Shown: positions 744-46,216, counted from the first letter of the stretch. The stretch: 54,306 nt of DNA from Clostridia bacterium (GCA_017440405.1 JAFSHG010000087.1:1-54306), one strand, 5' to 3'. The notes: a model not told the origin generated them from the letters alone. Numbers and translations are program-made.

Positions 744-3338
744 TCAAATGTCATCCATATGCAGCAGTGAGAGTATTTCATCATCACTAAGTTCTGTTAT
801 GTTGACATTATTTTCCACAACACCTGTTGCCATATCGGATTTACGCTCTATAAGCTCGTCGATTTTTTCCTCCAAAGTCCCCGTGCATATGAGTTTATGC
901 ACTATCACATTATTTGTTTGACCTATGCGAAATGCTCTGTCCGTCGCTTGATTTTCCACGGCGGGATTCCACCACCTGTCAAAGTGAATGACATGGTTTG
1001 CAGCCGTAAGATTTAAGCCCACACCGCCTGCACGAAGAGAAAGGACTATGTATGGGATGTAATTTTGGGGGTTGTTGAAACTCTCCACTATTTCTCCACG
1101 CTCGCCTATGCCGGTACTGCCGTGTATTACAAGTCCCCGTACTCCGAATAAGTCATACAGCGCATTTGCAAGCGGTTCGCACATCTCTTTGAACTGGGTG
1201 AAAACAAGCACGCGTTCTCGCCGCTCCTTTATTTCCTCGCAAAGCTCAATCAGGCGTGACATCTTTCCACTGTCTTTCACTTGGTATGTTCCCTGTCCCG
1301 TGTATTGGTCGGGATGATTGCATATCTGTTTCAGACGCAAAAGTCCCGATAGCACGAGCCCTCGTCTTTCCATGCCGTGTGAGTAGCCAATCTCTTCTGA
1401 AAGCGAGTTTACCACCTGCTTGTACAGTATAGCCTGTCTTTGGGTAAGAGTGCAATAGTTTTTCATCTCTATCTTCTCAGGTAAATCGGAAATTATGCTC
1501 TTATCCGTTTTTAGCCTGCGCAAAATAAAGGGACTTACGAATTTACGCAACTTTGATGCAGCATTGTCCATATCCGTGATACCCATGAGATAATCGGGTG
1601 TTGAATGGAAAAGCCCCGGATTCAAAAAATCAAAGATAGACCATAAATCGGTTATGGAATTTTCTATGGGCGTGCCTGTCATGGCTATCTTGAAACGGGC
1701 GTTTAAACGCTTTGCCGATTTGGATTGCAACGTCTGCGGATTTTTTATTGCCTGTGCTTCGTCCAATATAATGCAGTCCCACATAATGTTGCGGAGCTGA
1801 GTCAAGCGAGACAGCATGGCATATGTTGTTATGAAAATATCGCTGTCATCATTCTTTTCTATGCTCATGGTGCCGCAACTGTTGTGAAGCACCCGTACTT
1901 TCATAAACGGCGCAAACTTTGCAATTTCATTCTGCCAATTTTTCAGAAGCGATGCAGGTATTATCACCAAAGACCGTCCGCCCGTGAGTTGCCGTATCTG
2001 TTCTAAAACAGCGATTGCCTGAACGGTTTTGCCTAAACCCATATCGTCCGATAAACATGCGCCCAGTCCCATCTTGCGCATAAAATTAAGCCACCGCACA
2101 CCGTCTGCCTGATAGGGCCTCAGTGTGGCAGTGAAATACTCGCTCGGCTCCGATACACATGGCAGGGAGCTGTCCTCACGGTCACGCAGATTTTCTAAAA
2201 CGGCATCGTCTCCCAAATCAAACTCGGGAAGAACGTACTCCTCACCGTCGGGGAGGTTCTTGTCCGGTGAGAGCATGGCGCGCATTGCATCTGCCAGCGT
2301 GAGTTCGCTGCCGTTTTCCAGGAGCGATTCATACACAGCAAGGCATGAGTGCATTTCACTGCGATTCAGTTCTACCCATTTTCCTCGGAACATGAACAGG
2401 GTTTCATCTTTCTGCATGAGGCTTTCTATTTCCTCCGGGGTGAGCTTTTCACCGTCAATGGAAAGGTTTATATCAAAATTTAAAATGGCGTCCGTACCTA
2501 TCTGTGCAGTGCGTCTTATGGGAAGCATACCCAAAGTAAGCGTGCTGCGGCGTTTTTTCCAGTGATTGGGAATTCGGCATGTTATTCCGTACATGGAGTA
2601 CATTTCAAGCTCTTTTAAGAACGTATGCATTCCCGAAAGTGAGAGTGCATAACTGTCCAAAACAGCACCGTCATTGTATACTGCCTTCATAAGTTCGCTC
2701 TTTTTCGCAAGATTTTTTATGGCGAAAGAAACGGAATCCAATACATTTGCATTTCCGTCTGCTGAGAGTATTGCCACGGTCTCACGCAAAGGAAGCTCGC
2801 TGTTGCCGTACTTGCATGTGATGAGAAGACGGTACGGTGTGTCGGAGTTTTGAATTTCCTCAATGCTGAAAGTAACGCTCACCGCAGCCACTGTTTGTTT
2901 GTATATGTCCTCAACACACTCATGCAGCGGTTTGTTCTTCTTTGCGATTGCCCGTATAAGCCCACTGTACGTGTGCGTTATAAAAGACAGAGGCACTTTC
3001 CCCGACTTTTCAATCGAATTTGCTATTTCTTCCGTGCGCTTTTTAAGAGTGGCAGTAAGCTCCGAAATATCTTCTGATGCAGCGGCAGTGCGCAGAAAAT
3101 CGAGTGCAAAAGTGTGCAGGAAGCGCAAAGACGGGGAAGATGTGCGGAATTTTTGACTGTTTACCGCTGCCAAATATAACAGTGAATCTTCACTGTCTTT
3201 AAGATAACTGCAAAAGAATCTGTATTCGGCTGCCGACATGCGAACCCGTGAATCCCAAAGCAATATATAACCGTGTTCCGTGAATTGAACTTCCAAAGGA
3301 TATCCCACTTGTGTCTTTGCGGTTTTCCTTTTAGTCAA
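744..3338 (-). CDS. SNF2/RAD54-family helicase with a long bacterial SNF2-associated N-terminal region
   Basis: 864-aa ORF. Motif I is LSDDMGLGKTVQ and motif II is DEAQAIKN. C-terminal helicase motifs are LSLRAGGVGLNLTAANHVIHFDRWWNP and QATDRAFRIGQ. Its stop is 25 nt upstream of the PNP start on the same strand. Confidence 0.9.
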   Translation of the reverse strand: MTKRKTAKTQVGYPLEVQFTEHGYILLWDSRVRMSAAEYRFFCSYLKDSEDSLLYLAAVNSQKFRTSSPSLRFLHTFALDFLRTAAASEDISELTATLKKRTEEIANSIEKSGKVPLSFITHTYSGLIRAIAKKNKPLHECVEDIYKQTVAAVSVTFSIEEIQNSDTPYRLLITCKYGNSELPLRETVAILSADGNANVLDSVSFAIKNLAKKSELMKAVYNDGAVLDSYALSLSGMHTFLKELEMYSMYGITCRIPNHWKKRRSTLTLGMLPIRRTAQIGTDAILNFDINLSIDGEKLTPEEIESLMQKDETLFMFRGKWVELNRSEMHSCLAVYESLLENGSELTLADAMRAMLSPDKNLPDGEEYVLPEFDLGDDAVLENLRDREDSSLPCVSEPSEYFTATLRPYQADGVRWLNFMRKMGLGACLSDDMGLGKTVQAIAVLEQIRQLTGGRSLVIIPASLLKNWQNEIAKFAPFMKVRVLHNSCGTMSIEKNDDSDIFITTYAMLSRLTQLRNIMWDCIILDEAQAIKNPQTLQSKSAKRLNARFKIAMTGTPIENSITDLWSIFDFLNPGLFHSTPDYLMGITDMDNAASKLRKFVSPFILRRLKTDKSIISDLPEKIEMKNYCTLTQRQAILYKQVVNSLSEEIGYSHGMERRGLVLSGLLRLKQICNHPDQYTGQGTYQVKDSGKMSRLIELCEEIKERRERVLVFTQFKEMCEPLANALYDLFGVRGLVIHGSTGIGERGEIVESFNNPQNYIPYIVLSLRAGGVGLNLTAANHVIHFDRWWNPAVENQATDRAFRIGQTNNVIVHKLICTGTLEEKIDELIERKSDMATGVVENNVNITELSDDEILSLLHMDDI

Positions 3339-5012: not shown

Positions 5013-5039
5013 TTCATAAAAACGGAATTATGAAAAATA

Positions 5040-5072
5040 CCGCTTCCTTTCACATGAGGGGAAGCGGTTTTT
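5040..5072 (+). terminator. rho-independent terminator of glnA
   Basis: Hairpin CCGCTTCC(5040..5047)/GGAAGCGG(5060..5067) followed by TTTTT (5068..5072). Confidence 0.8.
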
Positions 5073-5432
5073 CATGAGCTGCGAGAGAAAATATGCGGTT
5101 TTTTAGTCAACACCGAGAGCACATACGGATATACCGTGACATGTTGCAAGGACAGCAAACGGGCAGGGCAGATATGTGCGGCAATGAAAGTGGGGTACGT
5201 TTGACTACCCTACAAAACTACACTACTCTCAAACCACTTTTCGCATTTCTAAAGAATCACGGCTGTTTGACTACCCTACAAAACTACACTACTCTCAAAC
5301 TGAACAGTAAAACGTAACCGCCACAATGCCGTTTGACTACCCTACAAAACTACACTACTCTCAAACGCATTTATCCTTGCCGCCGTGTTTGCCTGTGTTT
5401 GACTACCCTACAAAACTACACTACTCTCAAAC

Positions 5433-5645
5433 GTCAATAAAGGGATGGTTCTTTATTAAAAGAAAAGCTAACCTTGCGGCTTTCTCTTCGATTGAGGGGT
5501 AGAAGTCAACTCCGCCAAAGGATTGAAATGGGGATACAAGGCAGGAATCCAATGCGCCTTCATCTCGCACTCCGTCAAGACCACCTGTTTCTGTAATCAA
5601 CATACTGTGAAGTCTTTTGACCTGTGTTTTGCTAAGTTCTTCTAC
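5433..5645 (-). pseudogene. doc: Doc/Fic (death-on-curing) toxin gene fragment, 3'-truncated inside the HPFxDGNKR motif by a CRISPR repeat
   Basis: My translation reads ..EELSKTQVKRLHSMLITETGGLDGVRDEGALDSCLVSPFQSFGGVDFYPSIEEKAARLAFLLIKNHPFID. The next codons, GTT TGA, are repeat sequence. The remaining ORF from the ATG at 5603 is 58 aa, below the ORF-track cutoff. No canonical start codon lies upstream of the conserved N-terminus. Confidence 0.85.
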
Positions 5646-5647
5646 TA

Positions 5648-6070
5648 TTATTCCTCCAATCCTGCGAGAATCTCATATGCTTTATGATACTTCGCAAACA
5701 TTCTTTTAGATGCCCTTTCCACCTCTGCGTCTGTTGCATATCTTCTCTCGCCCTGAACGGACTCGTTGCGAATGCGTGAACTCGCCGGCTTCTTGATGAA
5801 TGATAAAACGAGTTTCCAAAAATCCTTCCAATCCATATCGTCAGTGCCACACAAAACAAAAGTGCCATCATCGCTTAACCATGTTTCAGAAGAGTGGTAT
5901 TTGCGAGCCGCTTCGGTGATTATGTAATCAACCTCTTCTTTGATGTCAGCCGTAGTCCACCAATATGTCTTTTTCATCTCTTCAAATGTTTCAAAGCCTT
6001 CCTTTTTCATAGTCTGCAAGAAGTCTTTTGCAACGATTTTTGCAAGCTCTTCTATTGTCAACTTTTTCAT
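5648..6070 (-). CDS. hypothetical protein in the antitoxin position upstream of and overlapping the doc fragment; putative orphan antitoxin
   Basis: 140-aa ORF with AAGGAG 10 nt upstream of the ATG at 6070. Its stop overlaps the doc reading frame, a typical toxin-antitoxin layout. The C-terminal tail ..ATDAEVERASKRMFAKYHKAYEILAGLEE resembles antitoxin C-termini. I recognise no family for the N-terminal ~95 aa. Confidence 0.5.
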   Translation of the reverse strand: MKKLTIEELAKIVAKDFLQTMKKEGFETFEEMKKTYWWTTADIKEEVDYIITEAARKYHSSETWLSDDGTFVLCGTDDMDWKDFWKLVLSFIKKPASSRIRNESVQGERRYATDAEVERASKRMFAKYHKAYEILAGLEE

Positions 6071-6429
6071 AAATTGAATACTCCTTTATTCTTGATAGGT
6101 TTGACTACCCTACAAAACTACACTACTCTCAAACTATTGATATCTACATGCGTATAGAGGTCGAGGTTTGACTACCCTACAAAACTACACTACTCTCAAA
6201 CTACAATCTTATAGACAACATCTGCATCAGTGTTTTACTACCCTACAAAACTACACTACTCTCAAACTAGGCTGTTGAGTGTCCGCCACTCGTCAGAGTT
6301 TTACTACCCTACAAAACTACACTACTCTCAAACTTTTCCTTGCCCTTGCAGGTCGTGGCTTCGGTTTGACTACCCTACAAAACTACACTACTCTCAAACA
6401 TTTGTCAAGAGGGGTAGCCAATATTTTTG

Positions 6430-6547
6430 GTTTGACTACCCTACAAAACTACACTACAAGTTCAAATAAAAGTAATCTCAAATCGTTCGGTTATTCCGTC
6501 CATGCACAGCGGTGCAAAGAAAATGCGTCTGTTTCAGGCGTTTTTTT
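6430..6547 (+). ncRNA. tracrRNA: tracrRNA (anti-repeat, nexus-like region, two 3' hairpins, U-tract); 5' end undetermined
   Basis: Positions 6430-6457 are identical to repeat positions 1-28. The sequence then diverges to AAGTTCAAATAAAAGTAATC.., compared with S. pyogenes ..UAGCAAGUUAAAAUAAGGCUAGUCC. The predicted lower stem pairs crRNA GUUUGA with tracr UCAAAU, separated by a bulge. Hairpins are TGCAC/GTGCA at 6503-6516 and 6526-6540, followed by T7 at 6541-6547. Confidence 0.8.
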
Positions 6548-6826
6548 GTTATATAGCCCATAGACGGACAGAATGTAATGTGATATCAAAAGCCCCCTTG
6601 TATTTTTATCGCTCGTGATACCCCCGAAAGATACGGAGCATTTTTTTGCTGCATATGCTCTCTAAGTTATATTATACTTTCCGGGGAAACAAATGTCAAT
6701 TATTGTAAAATGAAGCAGACGTCAATGTAACAGCACACTCTCTGATGTAAAAAAAACTATGTATCATGAAGGTTTTGAATATTTTTACGGTACGGCGGGC
6801 AATGAAATCTTATGACATTCATACGC

Positions 6827-6884: not shown

Positions 6885-8105
6885 ATGCCATCTGAATATT
6901 ATAACAGCCCCGGGCGTTACAAGCCGGGAAGAAAAAAACGCGGTACTTATAAGCCCAGAGGAAAGAGGGGATTGCCTGTTTTCGTGCGGGTTATTTTAGG
7001 CATTGCTGTGGTAGGACTGCTTACGCTCGGCGTTTTATTTGTTATCCCGGGAGTGGGCGGCGGCAGTTTTTCGCTCTTTCAAGCAAAGGACGACACACCT
7101 GTTGCGACACCAACGCCTGCACCCACCGCACATCCCATAGAAAACGCCAACACAGACAGCTTGATTCGTGATATCGCTATCACGGATACCAACTTCCAAT
7201 GGTTTGCGGACATGAACGTGTACGGCGATACGCTCATGTTCTGCGGTGGCGAGATTGTGGACGGCGATGCGTACATGACGGGCCTTTTCTCGGTTTCAAC
7301 GGATGAAAATGCTCCGAGGACGGCAAAGCGCACGAATATAATTTTGGAAAACGACCATATAATGTATCCGTGTTTTAACGATAACTGGCTGGTGTATCTG
7401 GACGCAAAAGCTTCAAGCGGCGGCAAGATAATGTGCAGTCCGTATTCGGGAGAATCTTCGGAGGCATTTTTAGTAAAAGAAGTGTATACGGGACATCCTG
7501 CACTGTTCCTCTCGGGGAATTTTTTGGCGTGGACGGAGCGCACGGGTACGAGCATGGATAAGTTGTATATTTACGACCTCACAACCAGGGAGAGTGCAAC
7601 TGTTCAGATGTTTAATAAAACCACATATTACGGCGTGAGTAAGCCTCACCTTTCGGGGAAACAGTTGGTATGGGCAGACGTGGACACGGAAAATTCCACG
7701 GGCAGCATGACGAGTCAGATTTGTATAATGAATACGGAATCGGGCGAGTTTTTATCATATAAGCCCGGTACATATGCACACGACCCTAAATCAAACGGTG
7801 ATAAATACATAGCTTGGATTACGGGGAATCACGGCACGGACAGTGACCTGTACATATCGTATGATATGGGCGAGGCGGAAAAAATAGCAGAGGGTGTTGT
7901 GGACTTTTATATGGATGAAAACTATCTCGCTTACCAGAAGGATGAGATGGTGTATGTTTATATTTTTTCAACAAAAGCTCAGTACAGGGTGAGCAAGAGC
8001 GGCCAGTGTGTGCAGCTCATAGGTGCATCGGGCGGATGCGTTATGTGGTCGGATGTGTCATCCAGAATGCGTGAAGTGCCTCAGTACATCGTAATACCCG
8101 AATAA
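6885..8105 (+). CDS. membrane-anchored protein with a probable beta-propeller ectodomain (hypothetical)
   Basis: 406-aa ORF with a basic N-terminus followed by a TM helix (VILGIAVVGLLTLGVLFVIPG). Motifs recur in the ectodomain: FLAWTERTG, QLVWADVD, YIAWITGNHG, YLAYQKDE. It ends 6 nt before radA. Confidence 0.6.
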   Translation: MPSEYYNSPGRYKPGRKKRGTYKPRGKRGLPVFVRVILGIAVVGLLTLGVLFVIPGVGGGSFSLFQAKDDTPVATPTPAPTAHPIENANTDSLIRDIAITDTNFQWFADMNVYGDTLMFCGGEIVDGDAYMTGLFSVSTDENAPRTAKRTNIILENDHIMYPCFNDNWLVYLDAKASSGGKIMCSPYSGESSEAFLVKEVYTGHPALFLSGNFLAWTERTGTSMDKLYIYDLTTRESATVQMFNKTTYYGVSKPHLSGKQLVWADVDTENSTGSMTSQICIMNTESGEFLSYKPGTYAHDPKSNGDKYIAWITGNHGTDSDLYISYDMGEAEKIAEGVVDFYMDENYLAYQKDEMVYVYIFSTKAQYRVSKSGQCVQLIGASGGCVMWSDVSSRMREVPQYIVIPE

Positions 8106-40636: not shown

Positions 40637-41902
40637 TTAGCCTATTATATTCTTTACTGCATTCAACACATCATCTGCACGGAATGAAGTTTCACTTCCC
40701 AGCATCATGTCTTTGAGCTTGTATTCGCCCGATTCCAATTCACTTTCGCCTATGACTATTACAGCCTTTGCACTTATCTTATCCGCATACTTGAATTGAG
40801 CCTTAAAGCTTCTGCCCACATGGTCAAACTCTGCATATATACCGTTGTTGCGCAGGGTGTATGCGAGTTTCATAGCCTCAGTCTGTGCTGCATCGCCCAT
40901 GGAAGCAATGTACACATCGGGCATTTTCTGTTCGGGAAGATGTATCCCCATATTTTCAAGCATGATGATGAGCCTTTCTATACCCATTCCGAATCCCACG
41001 GCGGGCATGGAACTTCCGCCCACTTCTTCCACCAGATTATCGTAACGGCCTCCGCCGCAAACTGCACTCTGTGCGCCCAAACTCTCCGATACCACTTCAA
41101 AAACTGTTTTGGTGTAATAATCCAGCCCTCGTACTATCATGGGATTTACGGTGTAAGGTATACTGAGTACGTCCAAACAGCTTTTTAAATTTTCAAAGTG
41201 CGATTTACAGTCATCGCACAGACAGTCTATGGTCTTGGGGGCGTTTTTGCAGATTTCCTTGCATTTTGCTTCTTTGCAGTCCAGTATGCGCAAGGGGTTC
41301 TGCTCATAACGTGTGCGGCATGTTTCGCAAAGGTTGTCCAGATTGTCGTGCAGATATTCACGGAGTGCGGCACTGTATGCGGGGCGACATTCGGGGCAGC
41401 CTATGCTGTTTATATTTGCACGAAGCCCTTTTACGCCCAATTCCTGCATCAGTTCAAACACAAGTGCTATACATTCTGCATCTGCCGCTGCATTCTTTGC
41501 GCCGAACATTTCCACGCCGAACTGGTGATGTTCACGAAGTCTGCCTGCCTGCGGTCTTTCATAGCGAAAGAGGGGTACATTCAGGTAGTACATTTTTACG
41601 GGCAGAGCGCCGTCTGCCATGCGGTGTTCCACAAAGGCCCTCGCAACACCTGCCGTACCCTCGGGACGCAGTGTTACGCTTCTGTCGCCTTTATCCGTAA
41701 ATGTGTACATTTCCTTTTGTACTATATCTGTGGTGTTGCCAACACCGCGCAAGAAAAGTTCCGTGTGTTCCAAAACGGGTGTGCGTATCTCGCAAAAACC
41801 GTGTTTTGCACATAATGCACGCATTATCCTTTCTACATACTGCCATTTTGCACTTTCATTCGGAAGTACATCTTTCATTCCCTTCAAAGCTTGAAGAGCC
41901 AT
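40637..41902 (-). CDS. hisS: histidine--tRNA ligase
   Basis: 421 aa with motifs LRPEGTAGVAR, FRYERPQAGRLREHHQFGVE and GGGRYD. Confidence 0.95.
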   Translation of the reverse strand: MALQALKGMKDVLPNESAKWQYVERIMRALCAKHGFCEIRTPVLEHTELFLRGVGNTTDIVQKEMYTFTDKGDRSVTLRPEGTAGVARAFVEHRMADGALPVKMYYLNVPLFRYERPQAGRLREHHQFGVEMFGAKNAAADAECIALVFELMQELGVKGLRANINSIGCPECRPAYSAALREYLHDNLDNLCETCRTRYEQNPLRILDCKEAKCKEICKNAPKTIDCLCDDCKSHFENLKSCLDVLSIPYTVNPMIVRGLDYYTKTVFEVVSESLGAQSAVCGGGRYDNLVEEVGGSSMPAVGFGMGIERLIIMLENMGIHLPEQKMPDVYIASMGDAAQTEAMKLAYTLRNNGIYAEFDHVGRSFKAQFKYADKISAKAVIVIGESELESGEYKLKDMMLGSETSFRADDVLNAVKNIIG

Positions 41903-41936: not shown

Positions 41937-42215
41937 AAAAAAGCAGCAAACCCAAAAGACAGAAACTGCCTGTACGGGACGACAAATAAAAACTTGCCGT
42001 GGTGCCACCCAAATTAGACACAGAATAAGTGTCTCACTCATATCCGTAACGGGGATTTACCGTCCGAGCCTACTCTTTTTATATTTCAGCACGGCTGCTC
42101 TGCGGTGTCATTCGCAAAAAATCCTTTGCAAGACAGGCTTTCAGCCACGACCTGTCATCTCTTTTGCAGGAATTTTCACTACTTTTCCGCTTCATCGCAT
42201 TTTACAAAATATCAC
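41937..42215 (-). promoter_or_regulatory. T-box riboswitch leader of hisS-aspS
   Basis: The conserved T-box sequence AATTTGGGTGGCACCACGG is on the minus strand (forward 41993..42015). An AGAGA K-turn-like element lies near the 5' end. The candidate specifier context is GAAUGACACC (forward 42105..42109). A T-run (forward A-run at 41937..41942) precedes the hisS RBS. Confidence 0.8.
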
Positions 42216-44837: not shown

Positions 44838-45037
44838 TTAAGGAAGCCTCCTGATGTTTCGTTCACGCCATATGTTATCACAGATTGGCTCCATTTGCAA
44901 GTACATGAAAAACGACAAGGAAATGTTGAATTTAGAGTTAAGGTTAGTTGAATGCGGACTTGAAAAAAAACGTGTTATGCTATAATATTGTAGCATCGGT
45001 GTTGTATCCGAATATTTGAAAGGGGAAACAGTATTAA

Positions 45038-46216
45038 ATGTCAGACTACGAAAAACACTCTGTAAGAGGCGTGCGCTTTGAAAGCGGAAAGCCGAGCTAT
45101 GGAAGAAAAAACGGAAATAAAGACCGTGACAGACACGGCTACGGCGAAAAAGGTGATTATAAAAAACGTGAGTATTCGGGTAAAGACGGTTATAAGAAGC
45201 CCTATGGCGATAAGGACGGTTATAAAAAGCGTGAGTATTCCGATAAAGACGGTTATAAGAAACCATACGGCGGCAAGGACGGTTATAAGAAGCCTTACGG
45301 CGATAAAGGCGGATATAAAAAGCCATACGATGACAGAGACGAACGCTTTGGAGATTATAAAGAAAGTCGCAAGCACAAAAAATATGATGAAGAATCCGTA
45401 CGCAGAAACAGTTTTGATGAAAAAAGAAGCGCAGAAGCGGAACATGCTGTGAGAGAGGATGAACTGCCTTTCCTCATCATGGGCAGAAATGCAGTGCGTG
45501 AGGCCATAAAGAGCGGCAGGAGCATAGATAAGATTTTGGTTATCCCCGAGCGTGACGGTTCATTGGGAGAAATCTTGGGTATGGCACGGGACAGAAATAT
45601 TCTCATTCAGGAAGAAAAGCGTGAGAAGCTGGACGAGCTTTGTATGCCTTTCGGTCACGGCGAAAAGACGGGCAATCATCAGGGCATAGTGGCAAGAGTG
45701 CCGGGTGCAGAATATGTGAGTTTGGAGGATATTTTAGACTACGCAAAGGAACGCAATGAAGCTCCGTTCATACTGCTTTTGGACGGCATCACAGACCCGT
45801 ATAACTTTGGCTCTATGATAAGAAGTGCAGAATGTGCAGGCATTCACGGAATAGTGATACCAAAGCGCAGGAGTGCTACGCTCACATCTTCTGCCGTAAA
45901 GGTGTCGGCAGGTGCTGCAAGCCATATGCGCATTGCAAAAGTGCCTAATATAGCGAATGCAATAGACAGGTTACATGAGAACAATGTTTGGGTAGCAGGT
46001 GCAGACATGGAGGGTAAGTCCATGTATGAAACCGACATGAAGGGTGCAATGGCAATAGTTATAGGCAGTGAGGATGAGGGACTTTCCGCACTGGTTCGCA
46101 AAAAGTGCGATTACATCATATCCGCTCCCATAAAGGGTAATATAGATTCTTTGAATGCTGCCGTGGCATCGGCTGTGCTCATGTATGAGAAAGTGAGACA
46201 GGATACACAATCATGA
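45038..46216 (+). CDS. rlmB: 23S rRNA (guanosine-2'-O)-methyltransferase RlmB (SpoU/TrmH family) with a repetitive basic N-terminal extension
   Basis: The C-terminal 250 aa carry the SpoU substrate-binding and methylase motifs: GRNAVREAI, DGITDPYNFGSMIRSAECAG, VIGSEDEGLS, IPIKGNIDSLNAAVA. Confidence 0.85.
   Translation: MSDYEKHSVRGVRFESGKPSYGRKNGNKDRDRHGYGEKGDYKKREYSGKDGYKKPYGDKDGYKKREYSDKDGYKKPYGGKDGYKKPYGDKGGYKKPYDDRDERFGDYKESRKHKKYDEESVRRNSFDEKRSAEAEHAVREDELPFLIMGRNAVREAIKSGRSIDKILVIPERDGSLGEILGMARDRNILIQEEKREKLDELCMPFGHGEKTGNHQGIVARVPGAEYVSLEDILDYAKERNEAPFILLLDGITDPYNFGSMIRSAECAGIHGIVIPKRRSATLTSSAVKVSAGAASHMRIAKVPNIANAIDRLHENNVWVAGADMEGKSMYETDMKGAMAIVIGSEDEGLSALVRKKCDYIISAPIKGNIDSLNAAVASAVLMYEKVRQDTQS
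45149..45334 (+). repeat. in-frame tandem repeat encoding six K(D/G)GYKK(P/RE)Y units
   Basis: Protein residues 38-99 read KGDYKKREYSGKDGYKKPYGDKDGYKKREYSDKDGYKKPYGGKDGYKKPYGDKGGYKKPYDD. The underlying unit is ~30-33 nt, with a 63-nt higher-order period. Confidence 0.85.

Follow-up and report, generated by a model that had tools for sequence, protein, structure and literature searches.

A cas-less type II-A CRISPR array fused in register to its tracrRNA gene, a probable product of anti-repeat/repeat recombination

We analyzed the complete 54,306-nt contig of an NCBI Clostridia bacterium MAG (hereafter, the window), which carries a CRISPR array joined to a tracrRNA gene. By architecture and homology, positions 6430–6547 of the plus strand are predicted to form a genuine type II-A tracrRNA gene. 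The locus is in our view an orphan remnant, in which recombination between the tracrRNA anti-repeat and a CRISPR repeat probably excised the cas9 operon and left a scar that is most likely inert and slowly decaying; we give this reading a probability of about three in four. What is added here is that origin, the excision of a cas operon in one step, and not a new kind of system: the locus is best classed with the orphan type II-A arrays, as one that has kept its tracrRNA, and it fails the defining feature of CRISPR-Cas, the cas genes. Its elements, with the evidence for each in brackets, are the following.

5199–5432, minus strand: array block A, four repeats and three spacers, trailer end adjoining the glnA terminator (repeat finding, direct reading).
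5433–6098, minus strand: 'giant spacer' of 666 bp, holding a promoter-less 140-aa ORF (6070–5648) and a truncated Fic/Doc pseudogene (Pfam Fic, E = 1.4e-11; match to contig L019).
6099–6429, minus strand: array block B, five repeats and five spacers, predicted crRNA sense on the minus strand (repeat finding, direct reading).
6430–6547, plus strand: predicted tracrRNA gene, with anti-repeat, bulge, lower stem, scaffold and terminator (homology to cas9-adjacent tracrRNAs; RF02348; independent covariance model).
6430–6457, plus strand: anti-repeat, upper stem, putative crossover hybrid unit (28 of 28 positions as in the plus strand of the repeat).
6458–6467, plus strand: AAGU bulge strand (6458–6461) and lower-stem strand UCAAAU (6462–6467) (AAGTTCAAATAA invariant in homologues; cofold).
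6468–6487, plus strand: nexus-equivalent segment AAAAGTAATCTCAAATCGTT (stable stem not predicted in the lineage of the window and L015).
6488–6498, plus strand: weak hairpin 1, CGG-TTATT-CCG (where the L002 clade has its GNRA-capped hairpin).
6503–6516, plus strand: hairpin 2, TGCAC-AGCG-GTGCA, 5 bp (predicted fold; pair changes among homologues).
6525–6547, plus strand: intrinsic terminator, 7-bp stem and T7 (terminator scan; identical in L015).
6671–6699, minus strand: consensus promoter TTGACA-17-TATAAT, reading antisense through the tracrRNA gene into the array (12 of 12 positions matched, all 12 kept in L015).

The array lies between the glnA terminator (5039–5068; the glnA product is MBQ9950020.1) and a conserved 406-aa gene (6885–8105), in a neighborhood that comprises PNP, an SNF2 helicase, glnA, the 406-aa gene and radA. 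Neither annotation nor tblastn with Cas9, Cas1, Cas2 and Csn2 (best E = 0.28) found a cas gene or fragment in the 54-kb contig, and a contig from ENA (L003) adds roughly 5 kb of cas-free flank beyond its left end. Being a true repeat-spacer array whose neighborhood lacks cas genes, the locus counts as an orphan CRISPR array. Nine full 36-nt repeats (plus strand GTTTGACTACCCTACAAAACTACACTACTCTCAAAC), perfect or near-perfect, start at 5199, 5265, 5331, 5397, 6099, 6166, 6232, 6298 and 6364; the spacers measure 30–31 nt, and an ordinary one precedes eight of the nine repeats. These lengths fit a type II-A array, and the first 28 nt of the repeat are identical to those of cas-linked arrays. A leader is absent, and the tracrRNA stands in its place at the leader-proximal end. 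Two repeats (6232–6267 and 6298–6333) read GTTTTAC instead of GTTTGAC, which is the 3' end of the repeat in the crRNA sense; in one further ENA contig (L005), one of the GTTTTAC repeats is further mutated, with a deletion, and the adjoining spacer has a substitution.

A tenth unit (6430–6465), exactly 30 bp from the ninth repeat, is identical to the repeat for its first 28 nt and diverges afterwards. The original prediction took this apparent degenerate terminal repeat for a tracrRNA anti-repeat, a claim now borne out by cas9-adjacent homologues, by covariation among them and by an independent covariance model. On direct reading, the 28-nt core is followed by AAGT (6458–6461) and TCAAAT (6462–6467), both as predicted, then by AAAAGTAATCTCAAATCG, a weak hairpin, a 5-bp hairpin and the terminator, whose hairpin spans 6525–6541 and whose T7 run spans 6541–6547. 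The two hairpins and the T tract named in that prediction are present at the positions it gave; the weak hairpin 1, of only 3 bp, is a third that it lacked. Hairpin 2 and the terminator are clear and covarying, and the fold of the whole tail has a z-score of −2.26 against shuffles. The pairing proposed with the minus-strand repeat (GUUUGA/GA/GUAGUGUAG...) also holds: the upper stem has 28 perfect pairs, the bulge is GA/AAGU and the lower stem is 6 bp long. The fifth position of the lower stem is G-C, as claimed, versus U-A in the S. pyogenes tracrRNA.

Relatives of this RNA adjoin cas9. The repeat core led to one GTDB species-representative genome, a Eubacteriales MAG (L002) with a complete cas9-cas1-cas2-csn2-array locus, in which a homologue is encoded on the strand opposite to cas9, about 35 nt upstream of it; this RNA reads GTCTTATAACCCTATGAGACTACACTACAAGTTCAAATAAAGATTCATCCAAATCG and goes on with three hairpins and a T run. 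Cas9 homologues led to four more cas9 loci (L010–L014), which carry the same RNA in the same place, and so does L015, a contig described below. Six loci (L002/L010, L011, L012, L013, L014 and L015) thus have a homologue encoded opposite to cas9 and roughly 30–40 nt upstream of it, and AAGTTCAAATAA is invariant in all nine aligned homologues. Among six sequences only, 92% (92.4%) of the cells in the three 3' helices are paired and five pairs have changed on both sides, compared with 0–1 in slid controls. On the same six sequences, the observed value of four of five covariation measures is equalled by no more than 1 of 500 shuffles, and the count of further pair types is indistinguishable from shuffles. 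The second pair of hairpin 2, for instance, is G-C in the window, C-G in L013 and L014, and U-A in L002.

Covariance models and cofolding, which the original prediction had proposed as checks, support it in part. A model built from five L002-clade tails only, with the window, L015 and the cas-less contig L007 left out, finds 6458–6547 (+) at 24.9 bits (E about 0.002) and, up to E = 10, nothing else in the 54-kb window; it also finds L015 and L007. Rfam RF02348 aligns over its full length (model positions 1–92) to 6431–6547 (+), but at 21.5 bits (E = 1.7) it stays below its gathering score of 70; in our judgement the low score reflects the clade's distance from the sequences of that model. When the minus-strand repeat is cofolded with the window tracrRNA, the canonical 28-bp duplex has −69.6 kcal/mol, but the minimum free energy structure (−71.4 kcal/mol) gives the lower stem another partner, UCUCAAAU at 6476–6483. 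The canonical duplex is thus 1.8 kcal/mol above the minimum in the window, and is itself the minimum in L015, L002 and L007. In the nexus-equivalent region, fold prediction yields no nexus stem for the window or L015; the L002 clade forms GAUU...AAUC there. The segment UCUCAAAU lies in this region and can pair with all 8 nt of the 5' end of the crRNA repeat; homologues have UCAAAU or CCAAAU at its position and no alternative lower stem there.

The original prediction also held that the anti-repeat reverses the orientation of the array, and the cas-linked arrays agree. Those with the same 28-nt core read GTTTGAGAGTAG... / GTTTGAGAG, which is the minus strand here, and in L002 and L010–L014 the cas9-cas1-cas2-csn2 operon, the leader and the repeats all run in the GTTTGAGAGTAG... 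direction. By this comparison, the crRNA strand of the window array is predicted to be the minus strand.

The origin of the fusion is read from L015, a contig reached through a homologue of the 406-aa protein (98% identical). Over more than 11 kb it runs collinear with the window, with a nucleotide identity of about 92%. The match sets in precisely at window position 6429/6430, so that homology begins at the first base of the anti-repeat. Left of that point, at the orthologous site, L015 carries cas9 on the minus strand, abutting the same tracrRNA; the encoded protein, of at least 1057 aa, has Cas9_REC, HNH, RuvC and bridge-helix domains and runs off the contig. L015 is a relative at 92% identity and not an ancestor; its contig ends inside cas9, and the comparison with the intact state covers the cas9 side of the locus. 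The two contigs share the tracrRNA, its terminator and the intergenic region downstream. At the 5' end of the anti-repeat, L015 has GGTTTAC and the canonical repeat GTTTGAC, and the window has the repeat's base at both differing positions. The tracrRNA as a whole differs between the two by only two substitutions, two single-base indels and one 17-nt indel, versus only roughly 80% identity in the adjoining intergenic DNA (hand count on the alignment); this conservation fits either a recent deletion or continued selection or use. L015 also has a 17-nt tandem duplication of the hairpin-1 segment (3266–3299; TCGTTCGGTAGTTCCGT / TCGTTCGGTAATCCCGT) that is absent from the window. Among members of the glnA cluster, the array side of an intact locus was not found, as the P0160 and P0168 genomes differ in synteny and contig L022 ends without a repeat. 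No full-length copy of the L015 cas9 locus was reachable among 120 retrieved Cas9 proteins, and L015 Cas9 is only about 43% identical to those of the L002 clade.

Along the plus strand of the window, the ancestral locus would have read glnA, array (trailer first), leader, csn2, cas2, cas1, cas9, tracrRNA, 406-aa gene, with all cas genes on the minus strand and the tracrRNA on the plus strand. An anti-repeat is encoded on the strand opposite to the crRNA, to which it is complementary, and is therefore, at the DNA level, a direct repeat of the CRISPR repeats; the cas operon would have stood between direct repeats. One event between anti-repeat and repeat within the shared ACTACCCTACAAAACTACACTAC, either a RecA-dependent crossover or a replication slip, could then have removed cas9-cas1-cas2-csn2, the leader and all newer spacers in a single step. 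Its product would be a hybrid unit, repeat on the left and tracrRNA on the right, placed automatically 30 bp from the next repeat, and the spacer of the recombining repeat would come to adjoin the hybrid unit, as is observed. The tracrRNA would thus be in register because recombination deleted the cas operon. Along with the leader, the deletion would have taken the tracrRNA's own promoter, and with no Cas9, Cas1, Cas2 or Csn2 nearby, no further spacers would be acquired.

The promoters are consistent with such a deletion. In L015 and L002 the native tracrRNA promoters (consensus matches TTGACA-17-TAGCAT and TTGACT-17-TATTAT, respectively) overlap the cas9 start codon, and the predicted tracrRNA start falls at the first bases of the anti-repeat. 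A consensus scan of the window found no plus-strand promoter between 6082 and 6827. On the minus strand, L015 has at the same place as the window a promoter with all 12 of 12 consensus positions, pointing through the tracrRNA gene at cas9, and the window promoter at 6699–6671 is therefore probably the former promoter of the cas9 operon. The intergenic region around this conserved promoter is the one with only roughly 80% identity. In the aligned sequences, then, the tracrRNA appears to have lost its own promoter, and a conserved predicted promoter beyond it now faces the array; this former cas9 promoter would transcribe antisense tracrRNA and then pre-crRNA. The divergent transcription of tracrRNA and pre-crRNA that was originally proposed needs qualifying: because there is no room for promoters between the two, they are not simply divergent. 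The only strong array promoter is on the far side of the tracrRNA, which it reads in antisense, and the native tracrRNA promoter is gone.

The L002 clade shows a difference at the same element. Its native anti-repeat (L002:6476–6503; also L010 and L011) departs from the repeat by three transitions (CAAAA to TGAGA), each of which the RNA duplex accommodates as a G-U wobble, so pairing continues over 28 bp; identity with the repeats in DNA is split into 13- and 10-nt blocks. We speculate that these transitions could lower the risk of a deletion of the window type.

The fusion has a counterpart elsewhere. A 46-kb metagenome contig (L007) carries, in register at 2626–2782, a single repeat followed by a 30-bp spacer, a perfect anti-repeat of 28 nt and a tracrRNA homologue, flanked by housekeeping genes (DJ-1/PfpI, DUF308, glutamate symporter); neither cas9 nor a tracrRNA promoter was found in the stretch examined. 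It is a second, independent cas-less fusion. Two further tracrRNA homologues were seen, one (L009:9003–11619) adjoining a Schlafen/AlbA_2 gene and a 193-aa Cas9_REC fragment, the other (L008:4509–4593) adjoining ispD/ispF. Both have their own strong promoter (TTGACA...TATAGT), and they resemble type II-A loci in decay, the tracrRNA having outlived cas9.

Three ENA contigs (L003–L005), each from a different sample, are identical to the window in repeats, spacers, the 666-bp insert and the junction, and a shorter contig (L006) matches the window as far as it extends, stopping inside the array; no spacer turnover was seen among these contigs. The insert, a feature missing from the original prediction, sits exactly between two intact repeats and splits the array. 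It is a gap-free copy (95.9%) of L019:545–1210 that ends at the repeat borders. In L019 the same DNA belongs to a module of two genes, intact and with a promoter: a 140-aa orphan ORF and, overlapping it, a Fic/Doc toxin gene. The insert starts 5 nt past the −10 box and breaks off within the HPFIDGNKR motif, at the repeat border; it has ATA where the doc start codon of L019 is ATG. It may have arrived by Cas1-Cas2 integration of a long prespacer or by recombination, and no source was matched in phage or plasmid collections. In S. pyogenes, prophage integration into CRISPR repeats likewise leaves repeat-bounded foreign DNA splitting a type II-A array (bioRxiv 10.1101/2020.10.09.333658); the window insert, in contrast, has no integrase or phage genes; it comes from the interior of a toxin-antitoxin-like locus and is cut exactly at the repeat borders. 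Taken together, the frozen identical array, the insert and the decayed repeat fit a remnant that no longer adapts.

They also weigh on the one alternative that shares the same deletion, namely that the module still works and a Cas9 from elsewhere in the genome, or from a mobile element, loads its guides. Pre-crRNA would then come from the 6699–6671 promoter, and tracrRNA from weak promoters in repeats or spacers or from read-through. There is precedent, as an orphan type II-A array works when given cas9 and tracrRNA (PMC4894674), and the window retains what such a module would need: a tracrRNA that is intact together with its terminator and better conserved relative to L015 than the neighboring intergenic DNA, a perfect promoter facing the array, and eight of nine repeats following an ordinary 30–31-nt spacer. 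We nevertheless consider continued function unlikely, given an array that shows no spacer turnover across the sampled contigs, holds one decayed repeat and is interrupted by a 666-bp pseudogene fragment, a tracrRNA promoter that escapes detection in the consensus scan, and the lack of any cas gene in 54 kb. Moreover, the sole GTDB species-representative genome with the repeat core is a different organism with its own cas operon. The spacers themselves gave no lead: three of them had no match, and hence yielded no protospacer or PAM, in IMG/VR, and none matched elsewhere in the window at up to six mismatches. The resemblance of the spacer at 6400–6429 (AGAGGGGTAG) to the region upstream of the L015 tracrRNA (AGAGGCGTAG) is treated as chance (shuffle p about 0.04; another spacer scores nearly as well).

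An assembly artefact would make the deletion itself illusory: the true genome would keep its cas operon, and assemblers would have jumped from a repeat to the identical 28 nt of the anti-repeat. A shared 28-mer could indeed join the two in a small-k de Bruijn graph, and the chimera would look like the window. In addition to the MAG contig, however, three other samples have the same junction with the same flanking spacer; contig names (k141_, METAG-scaffold) point to more than one assembler, and a k of 141 cannot bridge on 28 nt. Arrays, besides, normally break contigs and do not mis-join them, as seen in L011–L014. We regard an artefact as very improbable.

Excision of the cas operon also contends with the reverse history, a newborn tracrRNA in which the terminal repeat gained a terminator in situ, following the repeat-recruitment model (Faure et al., 2018). 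That model predicts both the in-register position and the perfect 28-nt match, and such cases were explicitly asked for (PMC6546382). The whole 3' scaffold, however, is homologous, with covariation, to cas9-adjacent tracrRNAs in six loci, one of which is the orthologous chromosomal site in L015; the scaffold is therefore older than the fusion. The suggestion in the original prediction that the tracrRNA is placed as if derived from a repeat unit has the direction wrong, as at that site the tracrRNA already adjoined cas9, and we find an origin in situ scarcely credible. Least of all do we credit an ordinary degenerate trailer repeat of a plus-strand array followed by an unrelated terminator, which is what repeat-degeneracy heuristics would call, as the plus-strand repeat has no type II 5' handle, the cas-linked homologous arrays read the opposite way and the divergent part matches tracrRNAs.

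Three other ideas were tried and rejected. A natural sgRNA of the tracr-L kind fails, as plus-strand RNA from upstream has the anti-repeat's own sense and cannot fold back on it. Array neogenesis by Cas1-Cas2 at the anti-repeat would give copies carrying the AAGTTCAA end, and all nine units have the canonical TCTCAAAC end. As for a phage-borne tracrRNA or sgRNA of the window family, the junction motif occurs in viral contigs as one chance match inside a long structural-gene ORF.

Among known systems, the window RNA most resembles the type II-A tracrRNA of the S. pyogenes type (RF02348): its anti-repeat pairs with the 5' part of the repeat, the duplex has the GA/AAGU bulge and a 6-bp lower stem starting with G-U, 3' hairpins and an intrinsic terminator follow, and in intact relatives the gene lies upstream of cas9 and is divergently transcribed. 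Unlike that type, the window gene is fused in register to an array, has no cas9 in cis and apparently no promoter of its own, the latter presumably deleted, and has no predicted stable nexus stem. Another close parallel is the orphan CRISPR2 array of E. faecalis, which to our knowledge has no tracrRNA of its own. Both are type II-A repeat-spacer arrays at a chromosomal site without cas genes, served at best by Cas9 in trans (PMC4894674; PMC4580645). CRISPR2 uses the Cas9 of CRISPR1. It functions only with Cas9 in trans, and the study of it supplied cas9 together with a predicted tracrRNA (PMC4894674). The window orphan differs in keeping a tracrRNA gene joined to the array, and in that its origin can be read by setting L015 and the window side by side as before and after.

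As to mechanism, array contraction by repeat-repeat recombination is established (PMC12477760) and is likewise a deletion between direct repeat copies with its junction in register. In the window, in contrast, one partner would lie outside the array, and about 6–7 kb of cas genes, not only spacers, would be lost. Recombination between the same partners, a tracrRNA anti-repeat and a CRISPR repeat, has been proposed to create or 'reset' anti-repeats, and observed events of this kind were asked for (Faure et al., 2018; PMC6546382); the outcome proposed here differs, being the loss of the whole cas operon and its leader. Our full-text literature search found no report of cas-operon loss with an anti-repeat as the outer arm of the deletion, and the non-open literature may hold one.

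As a natural before/after pair, L015 and the window would show that an anti-repeat can serve as one of the direct-repeat arms that excise an entire cas9 operon. This would explain simply how at least some orphan type II arrays, and solo tracrRNAs too, have arisen, and it makes a testable prediction, that the array left after the deletion comes under the former cas9 promoter. For annotation, an anti-repeat fused to an array mimics a degenerate trailer repeat and flips orientation calls based on degeneracy. A bolder view, which we hold to be unlikely, is that the fusion is a retained, still-wired guide cassette that a compatible cas9 could re-arm, and that its layout marks a recurrent excision route to orphan type II arrays. 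If this were true, the old cas9 promoter would drive pre-crRNA, the scaffold would be intact and a compatible cas9 alone could re-arm the cassette; every type II-A locus of the same layout would be excisable in one step through the direct repeats that flank its cas operon, and the route would have been seen twice, in the window lineage and in L007.

Elsewhere in the window, a T-box leader of ordinary appearance (RF00230, 135 bits; 41972–42204, minus strand) lies upstream of a 421-aa ORF (40637–41902, minus strand). Tandem repeats at 45157–45329, with periods of 30, 33 and 63 nt and the consensus ...GATAAAGACGGTTATAAGAAGCCATACGGCGA, overlap the 5' part of a 392-aa ORF (45038–46216, plus strand) and an ORF on the other strand (44838–45326, minus strand), and would encode a repetitive peptide segment.
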